Positions 1 through 36,364 of a stretch of DNA of 36,364 bases are shown one piece after another (position 1 is the stretch's first letter; each line of letters opens with the position of its first letter). The translations under genes and the position numbers were made by a program. The stretch lies in IMG/VR virus record IMGVR_UViG_2711768060_000011. One strand, written 5' to 3'. The notes beneath the pieces are model-generated. The model did not search any database. It saw only the letters and a list, made by a program, of their open reading frames with translations, and was not told the origin of the DNA. This DNA is from a virus. Its lineage: Duplodnaviria; Heunggongvirae; Uroviricota; Caudoviricetes.

Positions 1-432
1 ATGGAAAAGACATATTATTTTAATCCCTCTGATTCGGGATTTTATATTTCACCAGATAGCCAAACCATTCCTGAGAACGCTACGAAAATAAACTTTACTA
101 TTTATTCTGAGTTCGCAGGAGTTGCATGGCCTGATGGTAAAATACTTGGTTCAGATAAAAATGGTTTTCCAGCATGGCAGGATGCGCCACCACTTACCAG
201 CGAAGAATTAATCTCAATCGCTGAATCAAATAAACAGCGATTAGTTAATCAGGCCAACGAATACATGAACAGCAAACAATGGCCTGGTAAAGCGGCGATT
301 GGTCGTCTGAAAGGTGAGGAACTGGCGCAATATAATTTGTGGCTGGATTACCTGGACGCACTGGAAATGGTCGATACTTCCAGTGCGCCAGATATTGAAT
401 GGCCTACGCCTCCGGCAGTACAGGCCAGATGA
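1..432 (+). CDS. tail fibre assembly protein (Tfa), second copy convergent with the neighbouring tfa
   Basis: ORF begins with ATG at window base 1; C-terminal ...DTSSAPDIEWPTPP matches the conserved Tfa C-terminal motif (lambda Tfa ...DTSTAPDIEWP); 3' end overlaps the minus-strand tfa by 29 nt. Confidence 0.7.
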   Translation: MEKTYYFNPSDSGFYISPDSQTIPENATKINFTIYSEFAGVAWPDGKILGSDKNGFPAWQDAPPLTSEELISIAESNKQRLVNQANEYMNSKQWPGKAAIGRLKGEELAQYNLWLDYLDALEMVDTSSAPDIEWPTPPAVQAR

Positions 433-1006
433 CATCCGGCGCGGTGCTGATATCTGTTGCCGTCACCGCGTCAATGTAATCCAGCACAGTGTTAAGTCGG
501 GTGGTCTCTGCCTGCATCAGCTTCCGCCCGGCCTGCAATTTCAGTTGAATCAGACTAATGGAAGCCATTGCAGTATCAATCAGTGACTGACGTTGTGCTT
601 CTGCCGCGTCTACTGCGGCGCTATGCTGTGTCTCAGTATCCGTCACCCATTTCTCACCATCCCATTTATCGTATGGCGTTAACGGGGCGATAGTGGTTGT
701 TTTTTCGGGGTAATCACCCGGAGTTGTGATTTCTTTGGCGTCTCCCGTTTCGGTGTTATAGACGATTTCACCGCGATGGTCTGGTACATATTCCCATGAG
801 TTAAAATCTGCAGAGCGGCAGATTGCATAACCAGCTTTGTAGGTGCCTGGAGCATCTAAACAGGAATATGCCGGAATGCCGACACCAACAGCAAGATATT
901 CAGTTGAAGCTGAAATATACTCCCGACTCATGACGTCAAAGTTATAAACAGTAATTTCTCCTGCCATAGTGGCAATTAATTCACTGTTTAATTCTGCGTT
1001 ATTCAT
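404..1006 (-). CDS. tail fibre assembly protein (Tfa)
   Basis: 200-aa ORF ending ...TATDISTAPDVIWPVLPEA (Tfa C-terminal motif); lies immediately downstream of the tail fibre gene. Confidence 0.75.
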   Translation of the reverse strand: MNNAELNSELIATMAGEITVYNFDVMSREYISASTEYLAVGVGIPAYSCLDAPGTYKAGYAICRSADFNSWEYVPDHRGEIVYNTETGDAKEITTPGDYPEKTTTIAPLTPYDKWDGEKWVTDTETQHSAAVDAAEAQRQSLIDTAMASISLIQLKLQAGRKLMQAETTRLNTVLDYIDAVTATDISTAPDVIWPVLPEA

Positions 1007-1551
1007 TATGCAGCCCTCACAATATAGTTAAAAGCGACATTTCGTGGGCGTGTTTCATTCGCACCTGCAGGTTTAGTCGTTGCCGCAACAACACCACCCT
1101 CTGTAATAGCCGGGTTGGGAATTGGGTAATTATCGAAGTCAATGGCTGGAGACAGGGGCGTGATTTGTTTTAAAATCGTGGTGCCTGTAAAACTTCCCAG
1201 AGTCTGGTCGTTAGTTCGTGAAGTCCAGATTCCCCAATAGTGGTTATGACTGACAATCGCACCGTCCTGAAGCGTTAATAATCCCCTTCCGTTATCCACT
1301 CCACGTCCGTCATCCCAGCCACGAATAAACTCACCGCGTAAATCAGGTAATTTATTTGTCGGATAAGCCTTTGCCAGTTCCGGGTATTCTTCAGCAGAAA
1401 AAGCTGCTCCGTTGCATTTCAGCCAGCCTGTTGGCGGAGTGGCTGAAGGCCACGGAACAGGCACACCAACGGGTAATGCTGAGCCTTCTCCCAAACCAAT
1501 ACCCGCGCCGAACTTATCCTTCTGCGCGGTTTTCGTGTCTATACGATGCAT
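1006..1551 (-). CDS. short tail fibre protein (collar/receptor-binding type)
   Basis: 181-aa ORF between a Mu gp48-like gene and tfa; Gly/Pro-rich, resembles short side-tail-fibre proteins of e14-type prophages; start ATG overlaps upstream stop. Confidence 0.55.
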   Translation of the reverse strand: MHRIDTKTAQKDKFGAGIGLGEGSALPVGVPVPWPSATPPTGWLKCNGAAFSAEEYPELAKAYPTNKLPDLRGEFIRGWDDGRGVDNGRGLLTLQDGAIVSHNHYWGIWTSRTNDQTLGSFTGTTILKQITPLSPAIDFDNYPIPNPAITEGGVVAATTKPAGANETRPRNVAFNYIVRAA

Positions 1552-6612: not shown

Positions 6613-8448
6613 TTACCTGCCAAAGCGCGTATAGCCAACATCATGGCTGACATCAAAACCGCTGGATCGCGTTTCCATAACCCGCATACCCGGAGGCGAA
6701 TTCACAAAAGAGACCTTGATCTCACCATCAACTTTTGGCGCAGAAGCTTTGTTAATCATGAAGGGATTCGGGCCTGTGGCACCGGAGGCGTTGTTTGACT
6801 GAGCCGGATCCACCACCGGATAAGGTGTGTATCCCCGCGCCGGTATTCCCGTCCCATAAGCATCATAAGCACCCGCGCCCCACTGCGCAGAGTTAATGGC
6901 ATCGACCGTGTCACCGGAACTGTCGGTAAACCACTCAATAATTGGCTTCAGCTTGTCCCACATATCCTGAAACCACTTAACAACCGGTCCCCAGTTATTG
7001 ATTACCATCCCCAGCGGCGACCAGGCAAAAACCTTCTTCAGAAGTTCCCGGCCAGCCTCAAAATAAGGACCAATGGTTTCCCAGAGCTTCTTGAAATAAG
7101 GTCCTACAACATCCCAGTTAGTGATAATTAATCCCGCAGCCAGGGCTATCGCCGTCGCAATCATTCCAATCGGCGTCATCGACATGATCCTGCTGACAAT
7201 ACTGATGGCACCGCCAACGCCCATCAATCCCAGTTTCAGAATCGCAAGACCGGCAGCAAGCCCGACGACGCCGCGAATAACCCGGGGATTTTCATCCGCA
7301 AACTTCGTGAATTTTTCCCCCAACTCCCCCAGCCATTGCGTGATATTTTTGGCGTCACCAGAAAATGCGCCGCCAATAGCCGCAAGGCCGTTAGTTGCGG
7401 TCCCCGTCATTGCCTCCCACAGGTTGGACAGCGTACCAAGCTGGGCCTGAACACGTTTATTCAGGCTGGCCTGTTTATTCATCTTCTGCTGGATCTGATC
7501 GTAGCCATCCTTTCCTTTATCGATCAGTGCATTGACCACCTGAAGGGTTTCGGCATCATCACCAAATATTGCCTTAAGTACACCTGTTCGCTTAACGTCG
7601 GTCAGTTTTCGCAGCTTTGCCAGTTGCCTGAACATGTTATCAAGACCGCCAAAACTTCCTTTGCCGTCAGTAAAATCGAGCTGTACCCCGAGTTTCTGGC
7701 GGGCCATGACTTTATTGACGTCCCTGATTTTCTTAACGCTTAATCCGGACTGGATAACTTTTCGCAGGGCATTACCTGCCGACTCCCCGTTCATCCCCAT
7801 CTGATCCATCATGACACTGATGGGGGCAAGACTCTGTGCAGCCTGAAGACCGTCCTTGTTCACCATCTTCAGAACAGAGCTGGTTTTAGTGAAGAATGAC
7901 AGCATGTTGGTGTCGTCAACGCCCAGATAAAACGCCTTCTGAATTGTGTCGAACAGCCCCATCATGTCTTCTGAGACCGTTCCGGTAGCATCCTGCATCT
8001 TTGCGGCAAACTCGGCAGCCGCTTCCGGTGTTTTTTTCAGTTGTACCGCAAGATAAGCTGTCGCTTTACCCACACCGCCAAGAATGTTTTCTGCCGGGAT
8101 CCCCTGACGCACCAGCATCTGCATCATGTTCTGAAAATCAGCTGTTGTACCGGGTAGCTGGTTACCCAGGCCAATAGCCAGTTTATTGATGTCCTGAAAG
8201 CGCTTTCCAACCTCGCCGTTCGCATCCATCATGGCGACTTTCAGCCCGGTGGCGGCGTTTTCCTGATCGGCATAAGATTTCAGGGAAAGCGTCAGACCCG
8301 CTGCCAGTCCGCCACCAAGCGCCAGCCCACCCTGTGACGCTTCTTCCGCCTGGCGTTTAAATCCCCGGATTTTCTTTTGCATTTTCGACAGCGCGGGAGA
8401 AAGCCTGTCGACACCGGTGATCAACGCCTTAAGCTCAAATTCAGCCAT
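6613..8448 (-). CDS. tail tape measure protein
   Basis: 611-aa ORF with long Ala/Gly/Leu-rich helical stretches and a hydrophobic segment, downstream of tube and chaperone genes. Confidence 0.85.
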   Translation of the reverse strand: MAEFELKALITGVDRLSPALSKMQKKIRGFKRQAEEASQGGLALGGGLAAGLTLSLKSYADQENAATGLKVAMMDANGEVGKRFQDINKLAIGLGNQLPGTTADFQNMMQMLVRQGIPAENILGGVGKATAYLAVQLKKTPEAAAEFAAKMQDATGTVSEDMMGLFDTIQKAFYLGVDDTNMLSFFTKTSSVLKMVNKDGLQAAQSLAPISVMMDQMGMNGESAGNALRKVIQSGLSVKKIRDVNKVMARQKLGVQLDFTDGKGSFGGLDNMFRQLAKLRKLTDVKRTGVLKAIFGDDAETLQVVNALIDKGKDGYDQIQQKMNKQASLNKRVQAQLGTLSNLWEAMTGTATNGLAAIGGAFSGDAKNITQWLGELGEKFTKFADENPRVIRGVVGLAAGLAILKLGLMGVGGAISIVSRIMSMTPIGMIATAIALAAGLIITNWDVVGPYFKKLWETIGPYFEAGRELLKKVFAWSPLGMVINNWGPVVKWFQDMWDKLKPIIEWFTDSSGDTVDAINSAQWGAGAYDAYGTGIPARGYTPYPVVDPAQSNNASGATGPNPFMINKASAPKVDGEIKVSFVNSPPGMRVMETRSSGFDVSHDVGYTRFGR

Positions 8449-8582
8449 GTGTGCGTTTCTCCTGCTCTATCCTGTTTGCCTGACTGACCAGCAAGGGAAT
8501 TTCACTGATCGGCATATTCAGCAATTCGAAGGGATTAATGCGCCAGTAGCTGGCGCAGTCAAAGAAGCGATCAGTGAGGTAT

Positions 8583-8858
8583 TCAGCCGTCAGGCTTGGA
8601 GGGAAAACCAGCCACAAGCCACGCCGCTGCATTCAGGTCTGCCGGAGACATCTGGTCGACAGAGTTTTGCGGCACTTTCGCCAGCCGCACAATGTATTTC
8701 GATACCACATGCGCCAGAAGTCTGACGGACTCATCCTGATTCATCTGGTAGGGATACCCCAGCTCGCGGACATCTTTCCCGGTGGGCTCATCAAACTCCA
8801 GTACGGAGAGTGTCTCGCCATGAGCGGTAATCGGTTTCTTTAACTCAAGCTCTTTCAT
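8583..8858 (-). CDS. tail assembly chaperone (G-like); possible frameshift extension into 8441..8632
   Basis: 91-aa ORF between tube and tape measure genes; an overlapping 63-aa ORF in another frame runs to the tape measure start. Confidence 0.5.
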   Translation of the reverse strand: MKELELKKPITAHGETLSVLEFDEPTGKDVRELGYPYQMNQDESVRLLAHVVSKYIVRLAKVPQNSVDQMSPADLNAAAWLVAGFPSKPDG

Positions 8859-9214: not shown

Positions 9215-10710
9215 TATGCGGACTCCTCTGAATACTGAAGACGGAACTGGTTAACCACGGCAAAGACACGCAACTGGTTAACATAGTCAGGCGGGAACAG
9301 CGTGTTCAGGCGGTTCGGATCGCTGGCATCACGCTCCACAACCAGGTACTGCTTAAAAAGTTCGTAGTTTTCCACGATCCCCGCACGCTCAAGCTGACGG
9401 TAGGTTGCCAGCAGTTCCCCTTTGATCACCGCCGGGGTGACAATCGCCTGACCGGGACCAAAGCGGGTACCGTCGCTGGCAAGCTTGTGACGCCCGTACT
9501 TACTGGTAATGACGGATTTCAGTTTGCGCAGTACATACGCACTGGTATGCAGCGTCTCGCTGTCGAGGTAGCTGTTATCCGCAACCCCGTAAGCGTTTTT
9601 CCTGTACGTGGTGACATCACGCTGAATGCGCAGTACCCCGCTTTCGACATACGCCGTTGCCACGCCATGAGACAGCAAGGTCTGTTGTTCGGTCATCGTG
9701 AACCGTTTCCCCTTCGGCGCAGGCTGCATACCCACCAGCTCACCGGTCTGCGTGGGACGTGCCGGATCGTTGCGGATAAACACCGCTGCGCGGGCGGTAC
9801 GGCTTGCCGCCAGCTCGTCGGCAGGCGTCTGGGTGTCTTTTTCGTACCCCGCCAGGGTAATGTGCTGCTGGTTAAACTGGTCACCTGCGGTCACCAGTTC
9901 TGACAGCGTGCCGATCTTTGCCGTATACACATGACCATACAGCTGACGCGCATAGCTCCAGCGACCGCTGGTATCGTTCATCTCGGTCACCAGCGTGTTA
10001 ACGGAGGCCGTGTCGTTGAACGGCAGGCCGATATAATCAAACGGCTCATCCGCCATTGCAGCCACCGCGCCGGTGAGAACCGGAGCACCCGTTCCGGCGG
10101 TACCCGTCGCCACGGCAATCTGTACGCCCGCTGGCAGCACTTCGCCCCCACCAAAGCCGTAGTAATTGAGGCTGACAGGAATTTCATTCCCGCAAAGCCC
10201 CTTATGACGCGCGGTCAGTGTGACCACGCCTGCCGAAGATGAAGCCGTAAACGGCAGGGTCGGAACGGCATTGATGGCATCCTGGATACTGCTGGCAATC
10301 ATCGTGACGTTATCGCCGTTAGTCACCGGTGCCTGCACGCGGGTACGTCCCACATACACATTCACCGTGCCGGTTTCGGTTGCCGCCCCGGTCACCGTCA
10401 GCGTAACCGTTGCCGCCGCGCCTGTGGATTCAGGAACGGCAATCACATACAGCTCGCCAAACGGGTCAGTCTGGCGATAAGCCTCGACCATACGCGCCAG
10501 CTGACTTCCCGCACCACAAATCTGGCGTGCATAGTCTGCCGACGGCATCAGTACCAGACTGTTGGCAACAATCTCTGCACCGTTATTGGCATGACCAATC
10601 AGCAGCGATGCTCCGCTGTCCTGTGCAGTATTCGCCGCCTGGTTATCCATTTCCGCATAAAACAACGGAACCAGCGTATTCGACGGAATGGTGTTAAAGC
10701 TTATCGTCAT
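9214..10710 (-). CDS. contractile tail sheath protein
   Basis: 498-aa ORF, size and position match Mu L sheath; followed by tube gene. Confidence 0.8.
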   Translation of the reverse strand: MTISFNTIPSNTLVPLFYAEMDNQAANTAQDSGASLLIGHANNGAEIVANSLVLMPSADYARQICGAGSQLARMVEAYRQTDPFGELYVIAVPESTGAAATVTLTVTGAATETGTVNVYVGRTRVQAPVTNGDNVTMIASSIQDAINAVPTLPFTASSSAGVVTLTARHKGLCGNEIPVSLNYYGFGGGEVLPAGVQIAVATGTAGTGAPVLTGAVAAMADEPFDYIGLPFNDTASVNTLVTEMNDTSGRWSYARQLYGHVYTAKIGTLSELVTAGDQFNQQHITLAGYEKDTQTPADELAASRTARAAVFIRNDPARPTQTGELVGMQPAPKGKRFTMTEQQTLLSHGVATAYVESGVLRIQRDVTTYRKNAYGVADNSYLDSETLHTSAYVLRKLKSVITSKYGRHKLASDGTRFGPGQAIVTPAVIKGELLATYRQLERAGIVENYELFKQYLVVERDASDPNRLNTLFPPDYVNQLRVFAVVNQFRLQYSEESA

Positions 10711-10864
10711 CGGTATTCACCTTTTTATTCACGCGCCGGATATCACCCGCTGCTTCACGGCGCAGCCAGTAGTTGTTCTCGTCAACATTTCGCCCTTCGG
10801 CGGGCAAAAGGTCGCCGCGGGCAGGATCAGGAACTGACCGCCCTTTAACAGGTTTGACAAACAT
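10694..10864 (-). CDS. small hypothetical protein (56 aa), below the ORF-track size cutoff
   Basis: ATG at 10864 preceded by GAGGA (spacer 5 nt) that overlaps the stop of the upstream gene; TAA stop overlaps the sheath start; fills an otherwise empty 160-bp gap. Confidence 0.4.
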   Translation of the reverse strand: MFVKPVKGRSVPDPARGDLLPAEGRNVDENNYWLRREAAGDIRRVNKKVNTDDDKL

Positions 10865-10872
10865 GAGGATCC

Positions 10873-11433
10873 TCAGGAAGGAAGGGTTATTTCGGTGTGA
10901 TGTTCGATATCGCCGTCAGGCCCGTTACCGGGCTCGAGATAATCAACATCAATCGCCAGCGTTTGCAGTTCATCCAGACTGTTCAGATCATCCTGCTGGC
11001 GGGTATCGTCTTCAGTCAGCTCGCTGATGACCGAAAAATCGAACTGATAAATCAGCTCATGACGATTCAGATCCAGCAGCGTGCCGCCGTCATAGGTAAT
11101 CGGGTTACCGCACGCCTCCGGGTTCCAGCCCAGCAGAGCCTTAAAGAGCATCTGCCGGACATCGTCCACCACATCATACGAGGCAAACTGACCGCGCTCA
11201 TCACGCCCGTTACTCAGTATGACAACCACGGAGAAGCCCTCTTTCAGCTCCTGCCAGTAGTCGGTCTGGCTTTTGTTTTCTCCCGGAGAGTCATCACCCG
11301 GTACCACATACGCCGCCGGGAGTCTCAGCTTTCCGACCTCCGGCAGATTTTTGAACTGGGCCGCGCCTGCCACCCGGTTTTCAAAATACGGACAGCGGGC
11401 ACGCAGTGCAGCAATAACAGGCGTCAGTTTCAT
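10873..11433 (-). CDS. tail-associated protein (putative tail terminator/completion, Mu-type)
   Basis: 186-aa acidic ORF between the head-tail joining genes and the sheath; position-based call. Confidence 0.4.
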   Translation of the reverse strand: MKLTPVIAALRARCPYFENRVAGAAQFKNLPEVGKLRLPAAYVVPGDDSPGENKSQTDYWQELKEGFSVVVILSNGRDERGQFASYDVVDDVRQMLFKALLGWNPEACGNPITYDGGTLLDLNRHELIYQFDFSVISELTEDDTRQQDDLNSLDELQTLAIDVDYLEPGNGPDGDIEHHTEITLPS

Positions 11434-11936
11434 CTGTGTCGTCGCTCCGGCTTCAGTGATTTACGCAATTCCCGCGCCAGAAAATAGCGTGTCCAACTGC
11501 GGTTCTTTTCAAGCGTTTCCACCATGAAGTTATTACGTGGAGCCAGTCGCCAGCCGCTGCCACCGGATGCACCACGATGATGGCTGCGACGACGCTTTGC
11601 CCCTCGCCTCACGCCATAGAACAAAAAAGCCGGATAAAAATCACCGGTGATACGGCGGTTTCCCTCTCCATTACGCTGGTTAGGGGCTATACGTGCCATA
11701 AAACCAGGGCGATGTTTACTGGCTCTGGGTACCATGTAACCAATCGAACGAGCCAGGCGTCCGGTCTGATAACCGGGGTTTTCACCCGGTGCCGACCGCG
11801 CACGGCGCATCACCAGCCGACGGGCATCACGCATATGACGCTGACCAATCGTGACAAACGCCCGCCGGACACGGGCGCGGTTAAAGCGCATCTCCGCGGG
11901 CTGCTGAAAATCAACGTGCAAAAAGGAAGTCGTCAT
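11430..11936 (-). CDS. head-tail joining protein (HK97 gp10-like, putative)
   Basis: 168-aa Arg-rich ORF downstream of the head closure gene with a 4-nt overlap. Confidence 0.4.
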   Translation of the reverse strand: MTTSFLHVDFQQPAEMRFNRARVRRAFVTIGQRHMRDARRLVMRRARSAPGENPGYQTGRLARSIGYMVPRASKHRPGFMARIAPNQRNGEGNRRITGDFYPAFLFYGVRRGAKRRRSHHRGASGGSGWRLAPRNNFMVETLEKNRSWTRYFLARELRKSLKPERRHR

Positions 11937-12321
11937 TGTTGCCTCCGTGACTCTGCCTACATTCGCCCAGCTCCGTACACTCCAGCAGCAGAAAGCGCCG
12001 CGCCCCGTTCAGATCGCGCTGACGTTTCACCCGGTACACACTGTCACCGCAGACCACCTCATAATCAGCGGTGATCCCCCGGCGGTAACGAATGGTGATG
12101 TAATGGGTGATGGCGTCCCCGGTCTGCGCGGTTTCCTGCCAGGTGGTGGCACTGGTCTGGATAACCTTCGCCCATGTCCGGAACGTAACCGGGTATTGAG
12201 GCTCCACGCCAAAGTTATCCGCGGGCATATCCACCCGCAGGCGGATCAGGACGCGTTTATTCAGTTCACCGGGGTCCGGCAGAATGTAGGTTGCGCTGGT
12301 CTGCGCCTGACGAATTTTCAT
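11911..12321 (-). CDS. head closure / head-tail adaptor protein
   Basis: 136-aa ORF following the gp6-like connector gene, canonical HK97-type order. Confidence 0.5.
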   Translation of the reverse strand: MKIRQAQTSATYILPDPGELNKRVLIRLRVDMPADNFGVEPQYPVTFRTWAKVIQTSATTWQETAQTGDAITHYITIRYRRGITADYEVVCGDSVYRVKRQRDLNGARRFLLLECTELGECRQSHGGNNDDFLFAR

Positions 12322-12641
12322 TGCGGAAAGTACCTGTACGGGCTGACAAGCCAGCCAAAACTCTGCGGCATGTCGAGTTTCTCCACTTCCGTAACCGACG
12401 AGCGGTTTTCGTAAAAATGGCTGATAAGCATCAGCATCCCCAGACGAATATCATCCGGCAGGTGCAGCCCGTCCGGATCGCTGTCCGGAATGGTTTCATC
12501 TGGTGCATAGAGCTTCCGGTTCAGATACGTTTCCGTCCGCTTTTGTGCCGCACATGCCAGCAGTTGCAGATGGCGGTCATCAGTATCGAAATCCTCATCC
12601 AGCCGGAGTTGGGCTTTAATCTCTTCCATTGTCAGAAGCAT
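12318..12641 (-). CDS. head-tail connector protein (gp6-like)
   Basis: 107-aa ORF starting MLLTMEEIKAQLRLDEDFD..., typical gp6-like N-terminus; located after the capsid gene. Confidence 0.6.
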   Translation of the reverse strand: MLLTMEEIKAQLRLDEDFDTDDRHLQLLACAAQKRTETYLNRKLYAPDETIPDSDPDGLHLPDDIRLGMLMLISHFYENRSSVTEVEKLDMPQSFGWLVSPYRYFPQ

Positions 12642-12643
12642 AC

Positions 12644-12844
12644 TCAGCCCTCTTTACTGGTCGTGGCTTTTTTCTCTTTTGCCGCTTTACTGCTTTTTGC
12701 ACTGATTCCGCGCTCTGCTAACCCGGCCTGAAGTGCAATCTCCTGCACCCGGGCAGGAAGCGCCCCGTCGTCATACTCACCGGCCTGAATGACCTCAACA
12801 CGCATACCGTCCGGTGACCATTTCAGATCTTGTTTCAGGATCAT
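12644..12844 (-). CDS. small hypothetical head-module protein
   Basis: 66-aa ORF between capsid and connector genes, Lys-rich C-terminus. Confidence 0.4.
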   Translation of the reverse strand: MILKQDLKWSPDGMRVEVIQAGEYDDGALPARVQEIALQAGLAERGISAKSSKAAKEKKATTSKEG

Positions 12845-29253: not shown

Positions 29254-29940
29254 GTGAAAACACTGGCAGAACGATTAAAGATAGGTAGAGAGAAAGCTGG
29301 CATGAGCCAAGCTCAACTAGCTGAAAAAATTGGACTTTCACAACAATCTGTAGCCAAAATAGAGAATGGCGAAACTCTACAACCGCGCAAAATTAAAGAA
29401 ATTGCAAAAGTTTTAGGTGTATCACAAAAGTGGTTACAACTTGGTATTGAAGACAACGCATCCATACCTGATCTTGTTGTAAAAGAAGCAGAAAGCACCG
29501 CATTAGACCCCGATATTTTCGTAAACATTCCTGTTTTAGATGTCGAGTTATCGGCAGGTAACGGATGTCTGGCTGAAATAGTTGAATCAGCTATTGACTG
29601 GTTTCCGTTAAGAAGAGCAGATTTGAGAAAATCTGGCGTATGTGCATCTAATGCCAAGATCGTACAAATATGGGGGAACAGTTTATTACCGGTTCTCAAT
29701 AATGGAGATCTTGTTGCCGTTGATATTTCTCAAACCGTTCCTATTCGTGATGGCGATCTTTATGCCGTACGAGATGGTGTATTGCTAAGGGTTAAAATAC
29801 TTATCAACTTACCTGACGGTGGCTTGATTCTTAGAAGCTTCAACAAAGATGAGTACCCAGATGAAATACTCACCTTTGAAGATAGACGAGCCAGAATTCA
29901 TGTTATAGGTAGGGTATTCTGGTCATCGCGAACTTGGTAA
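29254..29940 (+). CDS. cI-like prophage repressor (HTH_XRE plus S24 LexA-type autopeptidase); GTG start
   Basis: N-terminal HTH (MSQAQLAEKIGLSQQSVAKIENGE), Ala-Gly cleavage site (LSAGNG), C-terminal S24-like Ser (GNSLLP) and Lys (LLRVKIL); AGAGGG Shine-Dalgarno before GTG at 29254. Confidence 0.9.
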   Translation: MKTLAERLKIGREKAGMSQAQLAEKIGLSQQSVAKIENGETLQPRKIKEIAKVLGVSQKWLQLGIEDNASIPDLVVKEAESTALDPDIFVNIPVLDVELSAGNGCLAEIVESAIDWFPLRRADLRKSGVCASNAKIVQIWGNSLLPVLNNGDLVAVDISQTVPIRDGDLYAVRDGVLLRVKILINLPDGGLILRSFNKDEYPDEILTFEDRRARIHVIGRVFWSSRTW

Positions 29941-30942
29941 TGCATCGAAAAGCATTTCTTCAGAAATAATTTTAAGTTTTGCACCATTATCATCCCTATA
30001 AGATATAGCCTTTTCGATCTTCCTTCCGTGACTAGAGAATTTCCAATCACGGGAGGAAAGCGTCCCAATTACTAAAAAATCCAACTTTTGAGTAATTCCA
30101 CTACTGATGTTCCCACCAGCATTTTTAATCAAATTTTCAACTACGGCTCTCTTTCCTGCAACAAAAGTGCCTGTAAGACAATAGGTTTTACCCTCTAACT
30201 CTATCGAAGCCCCTACATCAATAGGCAGCCTGGTCGCCAAACCATCCACCACCCCACTTTCCAAGTCACATCCTGTGAAGTCTACTAATGCCTTATGTAG
30301 AGTTAAACTCTCATCTTCAGTAATAACACCATCTTTAAGAATTTCCTTTACAAGTGCATAAAGTTTTTTTCCTGGGTAGTTGTTCTTCAAAGCTCCATTT
30401 TGCTCAAGCCACCAATTAAGATATCTTATTTCTTCTTGAGTTAAGTTCCGATCAGCAATTAATCCTTTACATAGTCCATTAAGTAAATGGACATCTACAT
30501 CCTTGGAGTAAAAATCAATTTCAGGGATATCAAGAATTTCCCTCTGTATTTGGAGAAGGCTATTTTTAAGGTCATCACGTTCTTCTGATGTGATTATTCC
30601 ATCCGCAAGAATATCCGACACCCGAGCAGATAGACTTTTTATAACTCCATTATTGATAATCTGCTTTGCTTCAAGTAACCATGTATCTAAGTAAAGAACC
30701 TCCTCTTCACGGACAACTCCATCTGCAATGATTCCATCAATGATGCTAATCAAGTTAGCAAATAACTTGTCCCGGTTTCGTGTAATTAAAAGCGTAAAGC
30801 GCGTCTTCCATACAACCTCCTTTTTTTGATAATCCTTGCGCTCCTTGGCTACTCGTTCAAACCACATAAAGTTGTTGGCAACATTCAAAACCACAACTAA
30901 ATTACAACTTAAAGGTGTTAAGACAACGAACAGGCAGGACAC
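29923..30942 (-). CDS. repeat-containing protein with C-terminal BRCT domain; likely true start at ATG 30867
   Basis: C-terminal ~90 aa (KTYCLTGTFVAGKRAVVENLIKNAGGNISSGITQKLDFLVIGT...) resembles the LigA-type BRCT domain; four ~45-aa repeats sharing ...L.DG.IT.EE...L...L; the first codon at 30942 is GTG and the N-terminal extension overlaps operator-like motifs. Confidence 0.6.
   Translation of the reverse strand: MSCLFVVLTPLSCNLVVVLNVANNFMWFERVAKERKDYQKKEVVWKTRFTLLITRNRDKLFANLISIIDGIIADGVVREEEVLYLDTWLLEAKQIINNGVIKSLSARVSDILADGIITSEERDDLKNSLLQIQREILDIPEIDFYSKDVDVHLLNGLCKGLIADRNLTQEEIRYLNWWLEQNGALKNNYPGKKLYALVKEILKDGVITEDESLTLHKALVDFTGCDLESGVVDGLATRLPIDVGASIELEGKTYCLTGTFVAGKRAVVENLIKNAGGNISSGITQKLDFLVIGTLSSRDWKFSSHGRKIEKAISYRDDNGAKLKIISEEMLFDALPSSR
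30866..30930. promoter_or_regulatory. OL-like operator cluster upstream of the plus-strand early operon
   Basis: Same motif as the right operator region: AAAGTTGTTGG (30868-30878), CCACAACTAA and ATTACAACTT (30891-30910). Confidence 0.5.
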
Positions 30943-33840: not shown

Positions 33841-34101
33841 ATGAGGTTATCAAAAATGCTTCAAATGCTGACACTTGAGGAATGGGCTGCGGAAAAATTT
33901 AGGAGTAATCCTCCAAGTGTGTCCACATTGCGTCGTTATGCTAAGCAGAATTTATTTTGTCCACCGGCAATGAAACAAGGTCGACTATGGCGAGTACGTG
34001 AGGACGCAGAGTTAGTTGGGGAATTAGTTACTCCTGTCATCAAGAAAAGTGATTCTATTATTCTACAAAGGATTTTAAGTAATGGCAGCCAGACCACGTA
34101 A
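33841..34101 (+). CDS. excisionase (Xis-like DNA-binding protein)
   Basis: 86-aa ORF immediately upstream of and overlapping the integrase start by 20 nt. Confidence 0.5.
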   Translation: MRLSKMLQMLTLEEWAAEKFRSNPPSVSTLRRYAKQNLFCPPAMKQGRLWRVREDAELVGELVTPVIKKSDSIILQRILSNGSQTT

Positions 34102-35212
34102 AAATAATGTTTCAGTCCCGAACTTGTATCCACTTTATAGTAGAAAAGTAAATAAAGTCTATTGGCGATATAAACATCCAGTGACCGGGAAGTTTCATTC
34201 TTTAGGCACAAACGAAGCTGAAGCCATTGCTATTGCCACTGAGGCAAATTCACGCCTGGCTGAGCAAAGAACCCGGCAGATTCTGGCTATCAGTGACAGG
34301 ATCGCAACCAGCAAAGGAAAAGCAATCACAACGTCAACCTGGTTAGATCGCTATCAAGCAATCCAGGATGACAGACTGGAAAGTGGCGATATAAAGCTCA
34401 ACACCTATAAACAGAAAGCCAAACCAGTATCCTTGCTCAGGGAACGAGCAGGAATGAAATTAATTTCATCAGTTGATGTAAGGGATATAGCGCAATTGCT
34501 TGACGAGTATATCACTGCCGGGCAACCGAGGATGGCGCAAGTAGTCCGCTCCGTTCTAATTGATGTATTCAAGGAGGCACAACACTATGGGGAAGTCCCT
34601 CCGGGCTATAATCCAGCACAGGCAACCAAACAACCCAGAAGAAAAATTACCCGACAACGGTTAAGTCTTGAAGAATGGCAAAAAATCTTTGATATCGCAG
34701 ATGCCAGTCATCGTTATATGGGGAATGCCATGCTGTTAGCACTGGTTACCGGCCAGAGGTTAGGTGATATCTCGCGTATGAAATTTAGCGATATTTGGGA
34801 TGATCATCTCCATGTCATCCAGGAAAAAACCGGGAGCAAAATCGCCATCCCGCTTTCTCTTCGTCTCAACGCGATTAACTGGAGTTTACGCGATGTAGTC
34901 GCCCGCTGCCGTGACTATGCAGTCAGCCCATACCTTGTGCATTTTTTTCGTACCACTTCACAGGCTGAACGTGGCGCGCAGGTTAAATCCAATACATTGA
35001 CGACGAATTTTAGTAGAGCGAGAGATTTGGCAGAAATTGACTGGGGTAATGGCTCACCAGCAACATTCCATGAACAAAGGTCTTTATCTGAACGTCTGTA
35101 CAAAGAACAGGGGGTAGACACACAAAAACTACTTGGCCATAAAACGCAACAACAAACCGATCGTTATCATGATGATCGGGGAAAAGATTGGATGTATATC
35201 CACCAGTTTTAA
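34082..35212 (+). CDS. int: site-specific tyrosine integrase (lambda Int family)
   Basis: 376-aa ORF; C-terminal LLGHKTQQQTDRYHDDRGKDW resembles the lambda Int C-terminus (GHKSDTMASQYRDDRG) with the catalytic Tyr. Confidence 0.9.
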   Translation: MAARPRKNNVSVPNLYPLYSRKVNKVYWRYKHPVTGKFHSLGTNEAEAIAIATEANSRLAEQRTRQILAISDRIATSKGKAITTSTWLDRYQAIQDDRLESGDIKLNTYKQKAKPVSLLRERAGMKLISSVDVRDIAQLLDEYITAGQPRMAQVVRSVLIDVFKEAQHYGEVPPGYNPAQATKQPRRKITRQRLSLEEWQKIFDIADASHRYMGNAMLLALVTGQRLGDISRMKFSDIWDDHLHVIQEKTGSKIAIPLSLRLNAINWSLRDVVARCRDYAVSPYLVHFFRTTSQAERGAQVKSNTLTTNFSRARDLAEIDWGNGSPATFHEQRSLSERLYKEQGVDTQKLLGHKTQQQTDRYHDDRGKDWMYIHQF

Positions 35213-35311: not shown

Positions 35312-36364
35312 ATGAATACAAATGTAGGGCAGATCACATTAATTGATCTAATTTCAATGCTTGAGAGAAAAGAACTAATAATTAACAAGGATTATCAGCG
35401 CGGAAATGGAATATGGCCACCATTTGCAAAGAGTTATTTCATAGACACTATTCTAGAAAATTATCCTTTCCCCAAAATATATTTATATCAAGCATTTGAC
35501 AGGACAAACGAAAGGCCAATTAAAGAAATTGTTGATGGCCAGCAACGAGTAACAACTCTCGTTGATTTTTATAAAAACAAATTTGCACTTACTTCGGCAT
35601 CGAAGAAGTATTCTGGCATGTATTTTAATGATTTGCCCGATGATGCAAAAAGATGTTTTATTAGTTATCAAGTTGAAACATCCACAGTTTATTCAGCAAG
35701 CAGGGCTGAATTACTCGAAATGTTTAGACGAATGAATGCTTATACATCTCCACTAACATCAGCAGAAAAACGGCATGCTACTTTTCAAGGTGCATTTAAG
35801 TGGTATATCGTTGAAAAAGCAGATACCCACGCTGAGCTTTTAGAGATTTATAATATATTGTCACCCAAAATATTAGCCAGAATGGGTGATGCAGAATTTA
35901 TCTCAGATATGGCAATACTCATTGATAGAGGGCTTTGTTCAAAGTCGGCACCTGCAACCGAAGCTATTTATAAAAAATACGATGATGATTTTCCTTTAGA
36001 GAATATCTATAACGAGAGAATTGATTATTTCTTCAATTTATTGGCGGAAGATTTTTCCGAATTACGTAATTCATTTATGATGAAATCGTATGTTGTTCAC
36101 TCATTATTTTGTGCTATTACCGCATTAAAATTTGGTTTCCCCGGAAGTGATGAACTTGAAAATGAACTCGGTTTCACGGCTAACCCAAACTTTGATGTAA
36201 ATCCTTCCCGTGTAATTCCGATTCTCTTAGAGATGGCTGATGCCCATGAAATTCAGGACGAAGATGGCCCTTATGCAGCCTATGTAACAAGTTGTTTATC
36301 ATCAACAACCAAGCTACCACAACGAACCACGCGCACAAAAGAACTGATTAAAGCATTCTTATGA
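35312..36364 (+). CDS. DUF262 (GmrSD N-terminal / ParB-like) domain protein, stand-alone
   Basis: 350-aa AT-rich ORF with AGGAGA Shine-Dalgarno; N-terminal DYQRGNGIW and DGQQR motifs diagnostic of DUF262; no HNH/DUF1524 motif seen in the C-terminal half; stop is the last codon of the window. Confidence 0.75.
   Translation: MNTNVGQITLIDLISMLERKELIINKDYQRGNGIWPPFAKSYFIDTILENYPFPKIYLYQAFDRTNERPIKEIVDGQQRVTTLVDFYKNKFALTSASKKYSGMYFNDLPDDAKRCFISYQVETSTVYSASRAELLEMFRRMNAYTSPLTSAEKRHATFQGAFKWYIVEKADTHAELLEIYNILSPKILARMGDAEFISDMAILIDRGLCSKSAPATEAIYKKYDDDFPLENIYNERIDYFFNLLAEDFSELRNSFMMKSYVVHSLFCAITALKFGFPGSDELENELGFTANPNFDVNPSRVIPILLEMADAHEIQDEDGPYAAYVTSCLSSTTKLPQRTTRTKELIKAFL

Follow-up and report, generated by a model that had tools for sequence, protein, structure and literature searches.

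An altered frameshift site in the tail assembly chaperone gene of an e14/SfV-family prophage of Escherichia coli

This report concerns a tail assembly chaperone (TAC) gene, and a second open reading frame (ORF) that overlaps it, in a 36,364-nt stretch of viral DNA (IMG/VR record IMGVR_UViG_2711768060_000011; the whole stretch is referred to as the window). The pair forms a G/GT-type tail assembly chaperone frameshift cassette, a class reportedly described by Xu, Hendrix and Duda in 2004. Tail chaperones use -1, -2 or +1 shifts in different phages (PMC5009743). Phage P2 makes its E and E+E' products (91 and 142 aa) through a -1 frameshift at TTTTTTG (PMC3091744), and phage lambda makes gpG and gpGT at G_GGA_AAG in a ratio of about 1:30 that is set by the efficiency of slipping (PMC5009743). 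In the window, the 91-aa chaperone is overlapped by a 63-aa ORF (the T ORF, encoding the T domain) that lies in the +1 frame, and this geometry almost certainly derives from a canonical -1 site.

Overlap geometry and the -1 arrangement in relatives

The chaperone reads from 8858 to 8583, with its TGA stop at 8585-8583, and the T ORF begins with an ATG at 8632, directly after a TGA in its own frame (8635-8633), and ends with a TGA at 8443-8441. Codon starts taken modulo 3 equal 2 for the chaperone and 1 for the T ORF, so that on the minus strand the T ORF is in the +1 (equivalently, -2) frame relative to the chaperone. The two overlap by 50 nt (8583-8632), and the T ORF stops 7 nt inside the tape-measure gene, whose ATG is at 8448-8446 (overlap sequence ATGGCTGA). 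A first-pass annotation, made from the sequence alone, had reported a 63-aa ORF overlapping the 3' end of a 91-aa chaperone gene and running to the tape-measure start, with a +1/-2 offset across GCT GGT TTT CCC TCC. Its coordinates were confirmed and the codon phases bear out the offset; the quoted codons are located at 8612-8598, where the window reads GCT GGT TTT CCC TCC AAG CCT GAC GGC TGA. No in-phase slippery heptamer of the form X_XXY_YYZ leading into the second frame was found in the window overlap, the second frame being +1.

The assignment to the G/GT type also held. The chaperone matches PF10109 (57.6 bits against a cut-off of 25), a family that Pfam describes as "E, or 41 or 14", the second frame is conserved, and both overlapping ORFs sit between the tube and tape-measure genes, as a cassette of this type requires. 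The minus-strand order sheath - tube - TAC - T - tape measure emerged from the ORF listing, three-frame translation, Pfam and PHROGs. The T domain itself drew no family from Pfam or NCBIfam, and PHROGs gave only phrog_32181, in which a function is unassigned.

The region is 98-99% identical at the DNA level to the Shigella/E. coli phages SfI, SfV, SfII and vB_EcoM-689R6, and we aligned the chaperone with those of SfV, SfI, 689R6, SfIV, YeP1, ST64B and phiP27. SfV, SfI and 689R6 read GCT GGT TTT TTC CTC CAG GCC TGA, encode an 89-aa chaperone and carry the T ORF in the -1 frame; their alignment with the window shows a 1-nt length difference exactly at the codons picked out by the first-pass annotation. 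In SfIV, YeP1, ST64B and phiP27, (G/R/N)FF is encoded by a T run, and a -1 extension ends on the tape-measure start. We then scanned relatives using one genome per species, which gave 30 loci with chaperone identities from 99% down to 33% (from Enterobacterales, Derxia, a Rhodocyclaceae metagenome-assembled genome (MAG) and a Methylococcales MAG). All 30 had an in-phase heptamer at codon 81-87 (TTTTTTC in 19 and TTTTTTT in 11), and synonymous positions near the heptamer varied freely in every locus. The -1 frame encoded a conserved domain with the motif (Y/F)W(R/K)(I/L)NP.E...QANRI in 30/30 loci, and this T domain, whose end overlaps the start of the tape-measure gene, was present in these loci and in the seven phages.

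Judged by these alignments, the ancestral arrangement is a textbook -1 site (GGT TTT TTC CTC, with the heptamer T_TTT_TTC, in a chaperone of 89 aa ending in ...AGFFLQA), and the second frame is genuinely coding, being conserved as protein across genera and orders. The comparison of homologous loci proposed in the first-pass annotation came out divided: the second frame is conserved, while the +1 offset is not, -1 being found in its place. Of the two readings offered there, an unusual +1/-2 frameshift that is programmed and conserved is not supported, as the relatives all use an in-phase T_TTT_TTY with a -1 frame, and a coincidental overlap is at odds with a T-ORF protein conserved across genera.

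The window chaperone has gained a new 6-residue C-terminal tail, PSKPDG (...AGFPSKPDG), and a fusion would append ~53 aa (PPSLTAEY...RTHG) to it. For annotation, this means that the 63-aa "hypothetical protein" is the T domain and that the 91-aa chaperone is an altered form of the 89-aa protein. PGAP, in the RefSeq records inspected (L004-L006, L178), annotates the chaperone on its own as a "phage tail assembly protein", and the T ORF is either left out or entered as a hypothetical protein; annotation of a programmed -1 frameshift was absent from all phage and genome records inspected.

Origin and distribution of the window allele

The exact window allele was present in 3 of the 901 complete E. 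coli genomes that have the region (RM7190, FHI_NMBU_10 and JNEC-KY176), on one IMG/VR contig compared with at least 120 canonical ones, and in several draft assemblies. The exact 91-aa and 63-aa proteins each occurred on at least 1000 contigs (2321 index blocks) in a collection of 15 billion proteins. Since the allele is identical in the three complete genomes, the IMG/VR contig, the drafts and these contigs, it is real and a sequencing error is excluded. The other full-length matches in a 60-row spread sample of complete genomes were all one base longer, that is, canonical. No report on the window allele was found in the literature.

Exact-sequence look-ups of hypothetical intermediates recovered the canonical T6 run together with the A at 8596 in three contigs, one of which is from E. 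coli B088. The B088 prophage and the window showed 4 differences in 17,124 aligned nt, two of them within the heptamer, where B088 has one extra T and a T instead of the C at window position 8603. Because B088 differs in this way, the window allele equals the B088-type allele plus a change of TTTTTTCC to TTTTCCC (net -1 nt). By this comparison the slip-site change is very recent, and the A at 8596, which is synonymous in the ancestral zero frame and causes a Gly to Ser change in the T frame, predates it. An event of three clustered changes that included the G to A change at 8596 was ruled out, the A being already on a canonical T6 background in B088. We also rejected gene conversion or a templated patch: no stretch of 10 nt or more from the new allele recurs in the rest of the window, and the 24-mer of the allele was absent from 185,579 species-representative genomes. 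The remaining hypothetical intermediates (the substitution-only allele, T4CCC with G, and T5 with A) had no match among the 15 billion proteins.

Plain T6 to T5 alleles were found on 128 + 97 contigs in other backgrounds, some of them in clean assemblies, and because such deletions recur in other lineages, the T run is a deletion hot spot. At the place that corresponds to window 8600-8609, some of the loci with such changes (L168-L174 and L183-L187) are clean short-read assemblies of otherwise intact E. coli prophages, and one contig pair (L171) has a G deletion just 3' of the run instead of a T loss. It seems that either prophages are often inactivated at the chaperone slip site or a T5 run (UUU_U) is tolerated.

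Between carrier prophages, or between these and the window, there are 0-4 single-nucleotide polymorphisms (SNPs) per ~17 kb. Over the adjacent 50 kb of chromosome, the three complete-genome carriers are 4-6 SNPs from each other, compared with ~240 SNPs from the non-carrier RM10466, which has a 98.4%-identical prophage at the same site; on this contrast, the carriers represent one host clone. By these counts, prophage and chromosome have diverged in step, and the 50-kb flank comparison of the three complete-genome carriers gave no evidence that the mutant phage moved horizontally between hosts. A shorter, 8.8-kb host flank was dropped as evidence of clonality because it did not discriminate, a non-carrier being only 3 SNPs away.

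Further lesions were seen in sibling copies. An IS3 element lies in the HNH endonuclease gene next to terminase in FHI_NMBU_10 and JNEC-KY176 (L005/L006, 8524-10135) and also in L129, and an IS21 element lies in the tape-measure gene of another member of the same prophage lineage (L131, GCA_026134825.1, about 10300-12800). The insertions in carriers are independent of each other. An apparent truncation of TerL in L130 proved to be a different gene call and not a lesion.

Routes to a fusion product and rival explanations

Any shift into the T frame would have to take place in the 47 nt between the +1-frame stop at 8635-8633 and the zero-frame stop at 8585-8583. Within this interval, +1 re-pairing in the P site is available only at UUU_C (8606-8603, UUU to UUC) and at CCC_U (8603-8600, CCC to CCU). 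Both routes would lead to the same product, ...AGF-PPSLTAEY..., which is one Phe shorter than the ancestral ...AGFF-PPSL... and would have the junction peptides ...LVAGFPPSLTAEYLTDR and VPQNSVDQMSPADLNAAAWLVAGFPPSLTAEYLTDR; a -2 product would read ...AGFFPPSL.... At the site we found no stop or very rare codon in the A site (the codons are CCC and UCC), no Shine-Dalgarno-like element and no well-placed 3' structure. The structure nearby is a weak 4-bp hairpin with the slip site in its loop (fold z-scores -1.2 to -1.9). Neither predicted hairpin makes a convincing stimulator: the one enclosing the slip site was non-significant against shuffled sequences, and the one strong hairpin, which lies within the T-domain coding region, is ~43 nt 3' of the slip site and may be too distant to stimulate frameshifting. 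Rather than being conserved, the +1 site is restricted to a single prophage lineage of a single host clone, and the -1 heptamer is present in B088, the immediate ancestor.

The explanation that we favor, and regard as more likely than not, is that the +1 offset is a largely non-functional lesion of the canonical -1 site that hitchhiked in one clone. In this family, a PF10109 chaperone like P2 gpE would be made by normal translation, with a small fraction of ribosomes slipping -1 on T_TTT_TTY near the 3' end to give a chaperone+T product that extends as far as the start of the tape measure. On the model of lambda gpG/gpGT and P2 E/E+E', the two products would chaperone the tape measure and recruit tube subunits. 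Two changes in the resident prophage of one E. coli clone destroyed the heptamer and moved the T domain to the +1 frame, and by hitchhiking with that clone the allele would have reached thousands of assemblies. The one remaining way to the fusion would be spontaneous +1 slippage of tRNA-Phe on UUU_C or of tRNA-Pro on CCC_U, probably at ~1% or less because no recognizable stimulator is present. We infer that efficient frameshifting has been lost, and tail assembly would be expected to be impaired.

Several observations pull against a lesion. All other structural genes of the window copy are intact. Two of the four differences from B088 fall within 7 nt (p ~1e-6 under uniform mutation rates), and the T to C change is synonymous in the T frame and, because its intermediates were not found, has no obvious hot spot. 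The sequence created is also shift-prone elsewhere: UUU_Ynn is a documented +1-prone motif in bacteria and the capsid gene of Listeria phage PSA shifts +1 at ACA_CCC_UCC_GAA (both PMC5009743), CCC-N gives ~1% +1 shifting errors in E. coli (PMC4519876), and in many phages the chaperone slip site functions with no stimulator (PMC3091744). The clustering of the two changes suggests that a single complex event took place, that a hypermutable run was hit twice, or that the second change was selected. Under the last of these, a T deletion followed by the T to C change would have rescued the locus by turning T_TTT_TTC into a bona fide, functional +1 site, UUU_CCC_UCC, that gives chaperone+T. We hold such a working replacement to be possible and rather doubtful. 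Counting in its favor are the clustering of both mutations within the heptamer, the absence of the intermediates from databases and the intactness of the rest of the prophage; it draws as well on the convergence of the UUU_C and CCC_U routes on one product, on the shift-proneness of CCC-N in E. coli, on the standing of UUU_Ynn and CCC_UCC as known +1 sites, and on the variation in shift direction among phage chaperones. On the other hand, the site is not conserved outside one clone, the -1 heptamer is retained in each of the 30 diverged relatives, no stimulator is recognizable, CCC and UCC as A-site codons are neither stops nor very rare, sibling copies carry IS insertions, and we saw no evidence of the horizontal transmission that selection for phage function would require.

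Other ways of explaining the second frame fared worse than either a lesion or a replacement. The deletion put the ATG at 8632 in frame with the T domain, and PGAP calls a gene there in two of the three genomes, so a free 63-aa T-domain protein might be translated alone from this start; we think this improbable, given that no Shine-Dalgarno sequence lies upstream (ccggcagacctgaATG), that the T domain has no conserved start of its own in any relative, and that, by analogy with established knowledge of lambda gpGT, it would need tethering to the chaperone. A -2 slip of the kind reported for Mu gp41 (PMC5009743, PMC2628397) would reach the same frame, and the Mu T-like ORF is likewise in the +1/-2 frame. 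Such a slip is very improbable here because UUU would have to re-pair on GUU and CCC on UUC, both mismatched; the Mu site, CGG_GGG_CGA, lets tRNA-Gly re-pair two bases back, whereas the window lacks such a repeat, and its chaperone shows no BLASTP similarity to Mu gp41 (PF23746). Least credible of all, and refuted by the data, is a homopolymer sequencing or assembly error, or a chance overlap of ORFs. In favor of an error, one genome, elppa4, has T5 at the run in an assembly riddled with frameshifted genes. The window allele, however, combines a substitution with a deletion, and it is shared letter for letter by independent assemblies from three countries (the USA, Norway and Japan) and by at least 1000 contigs; at the protein level, conservation of the T frame reaches across orders.

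As it stands, the locus is an ordinary, well-understood phage feature with a recent mutation, it matters mainly for annotation, and the prophage may be tail-defective. It would matter more if the site still frameshifts: B088, RM7190 and the recurrent T5 alleles would then form a ready-made allelic series with which one could gauge how much chaperone fusion a contractile-tail phage needs, and whether one or two mutational steps suffice to put a +1 site in place of a -1 site. Were the rescue true, B088-type and RM7190-type prophages would be a near-isogenic natural pair that captures a switch in frameshift direction, and would show by what route related tail-chaperone genes diverged to -1, -2 or +1 shifting among phages.

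Prophage context and comparison with known systems

The window is a full-length e14/SfV-family prophage, related to K-12 e14, whose head is of the HK97 type and whose contractile tail resembles those of Mu and P2. The same element in complete E. coli genomes adjoins pinE and mcrA, beside an icd remnant. The features discussed here are collected in Table 1; the SfV counterpart of the sheath is annotated as similar to Mu gpL, and the tube protein is 100% identical to that of SfV/SfI.

Table 1. Positions of the tail genes, the slip site and associated features in the window.
Feature	Position	Strand	Basis
Tail sheath, 498 aa	9214..10710	minus	Pfam Phage_sheath_1/1C/domII, phrog_165
Tail tube, 118 aa	8858..9214	minus	PF10618 Tail_tube E=2e-33, phrog_185
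Tail assembly chaperone, zero frame, 91 aa	8583..8858	minus	PF10109 Phage_TAC_7 E=1.4e-15, phrog_166
Mutated slip site UUU_CCC_U (GGT TTT CCC TCC)	8600..8606	minus	Alignments with phages; B088 comparison
A in CCAAGCC	8596	minus	G in 123/123 canonical loci sampled
T-domain ORF, 63 aa	8441..8632	minus	phrog_32181 E=2e-48; homologous -1-frame extensions in relatives
Strong hairpin GCGCCAG-CUA-CUGGCGC, perfect 7-8 bp, GC-rich	8539..8557	minus	Predicted in both alleles
Tape measure protein, 611 aa	6613..8448	minus	PF10145 PhageMin_Tail, phrog_28, phrog_17727
Integrase	34082-35212		Within the window

Outside the tail cassette, the tail-fiber end of the window (1-1551) is a Pin-type invertible segment, of which the part 1-1499 has the opposite orientation to that in RM7190 and FHI_NMBU_10. 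The fiber ORF that crosses the segment boundary encodes 181 aa in the window versus 215 or 260 aa in sibling prophages, and JNEC-KY176 has an extra 237 nt at the invertible-segment junction, which suggests several crossover sites. Just past the integrase, a plus-strand gene (35312-36364) that runs off the end of the window encodes a protein with a GmrSD_N (DUF262) domain and is probably type IV restriction-like defense cargo lying at the prophage's attachment-site end. In related prophages (L183-L185), a full GmrSD is carried at the opposite end. A minus-strand gene (29923-30942) encodes a protein of 339 aa that is repetitive and helical in its N-terminal part and has a BRCT domain at the C-terminal end. 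It is divergent from the adjoining S24/LexA-like repressor gene (29254-29940) and may be an exclusion or defense moron.

Among described systems, lambda follows the same logic as the window family, with a chaperone and a frameshift-extended chaperone encoded upstream of the tape measure, but it has a non-contractile tail and another slippery motif, and no similarity in sequence would be expected. Phage Mu shares both the +1/-2 offset and the neighborhood (sheath L, tube M, gp41, tape measure). A tblastn search with the tube protein did not reach Mu, which was compared from its own accession; gp41 differs in belonging to PF23746 and in its slip site, CGG_GGG_CGA, and the window TAC gave no PF23746 match and no BLASTP alignment to it. 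The motif in the window resembles the +1 sites of argI and YopN-TyeA (UUU_Ynn) and of PSA cps (ACA_CCC_UCC_GAA) in having UUU_C directly before CCC_UCC. Those sites are conserved and/or experimentally shown, that of PSA in a different host, whereas the window motif is a few mutations old.

P2 gpE shares with the window chaperone its PF10109 domain and its position between tube and tape measure in a contractile tail. Product sizes are P2-like (89-91 aa and about 138-139 aa in the window family), as is the ancestral slip site, where a run of T close to the 3' end forms the heptamer T_TTT_TTC and no stimulator is obvious. Unlike in P2, the heptamer of the window is destroyed and the extension lies in +1, and the last heptamer base in the family is C or T where P2 has G. 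The SfV/SfI/SfII/e14 family (orf13 plus an unannotated downstream ORF) matches the window at 98-99% DNA identity and in gene order; SfV, SfI and SfII read GGT TTT TTC CTC CAG with the T domain in -1, whereas the window reads GGT TTT CCC TCC AAG with the T domain in +1.

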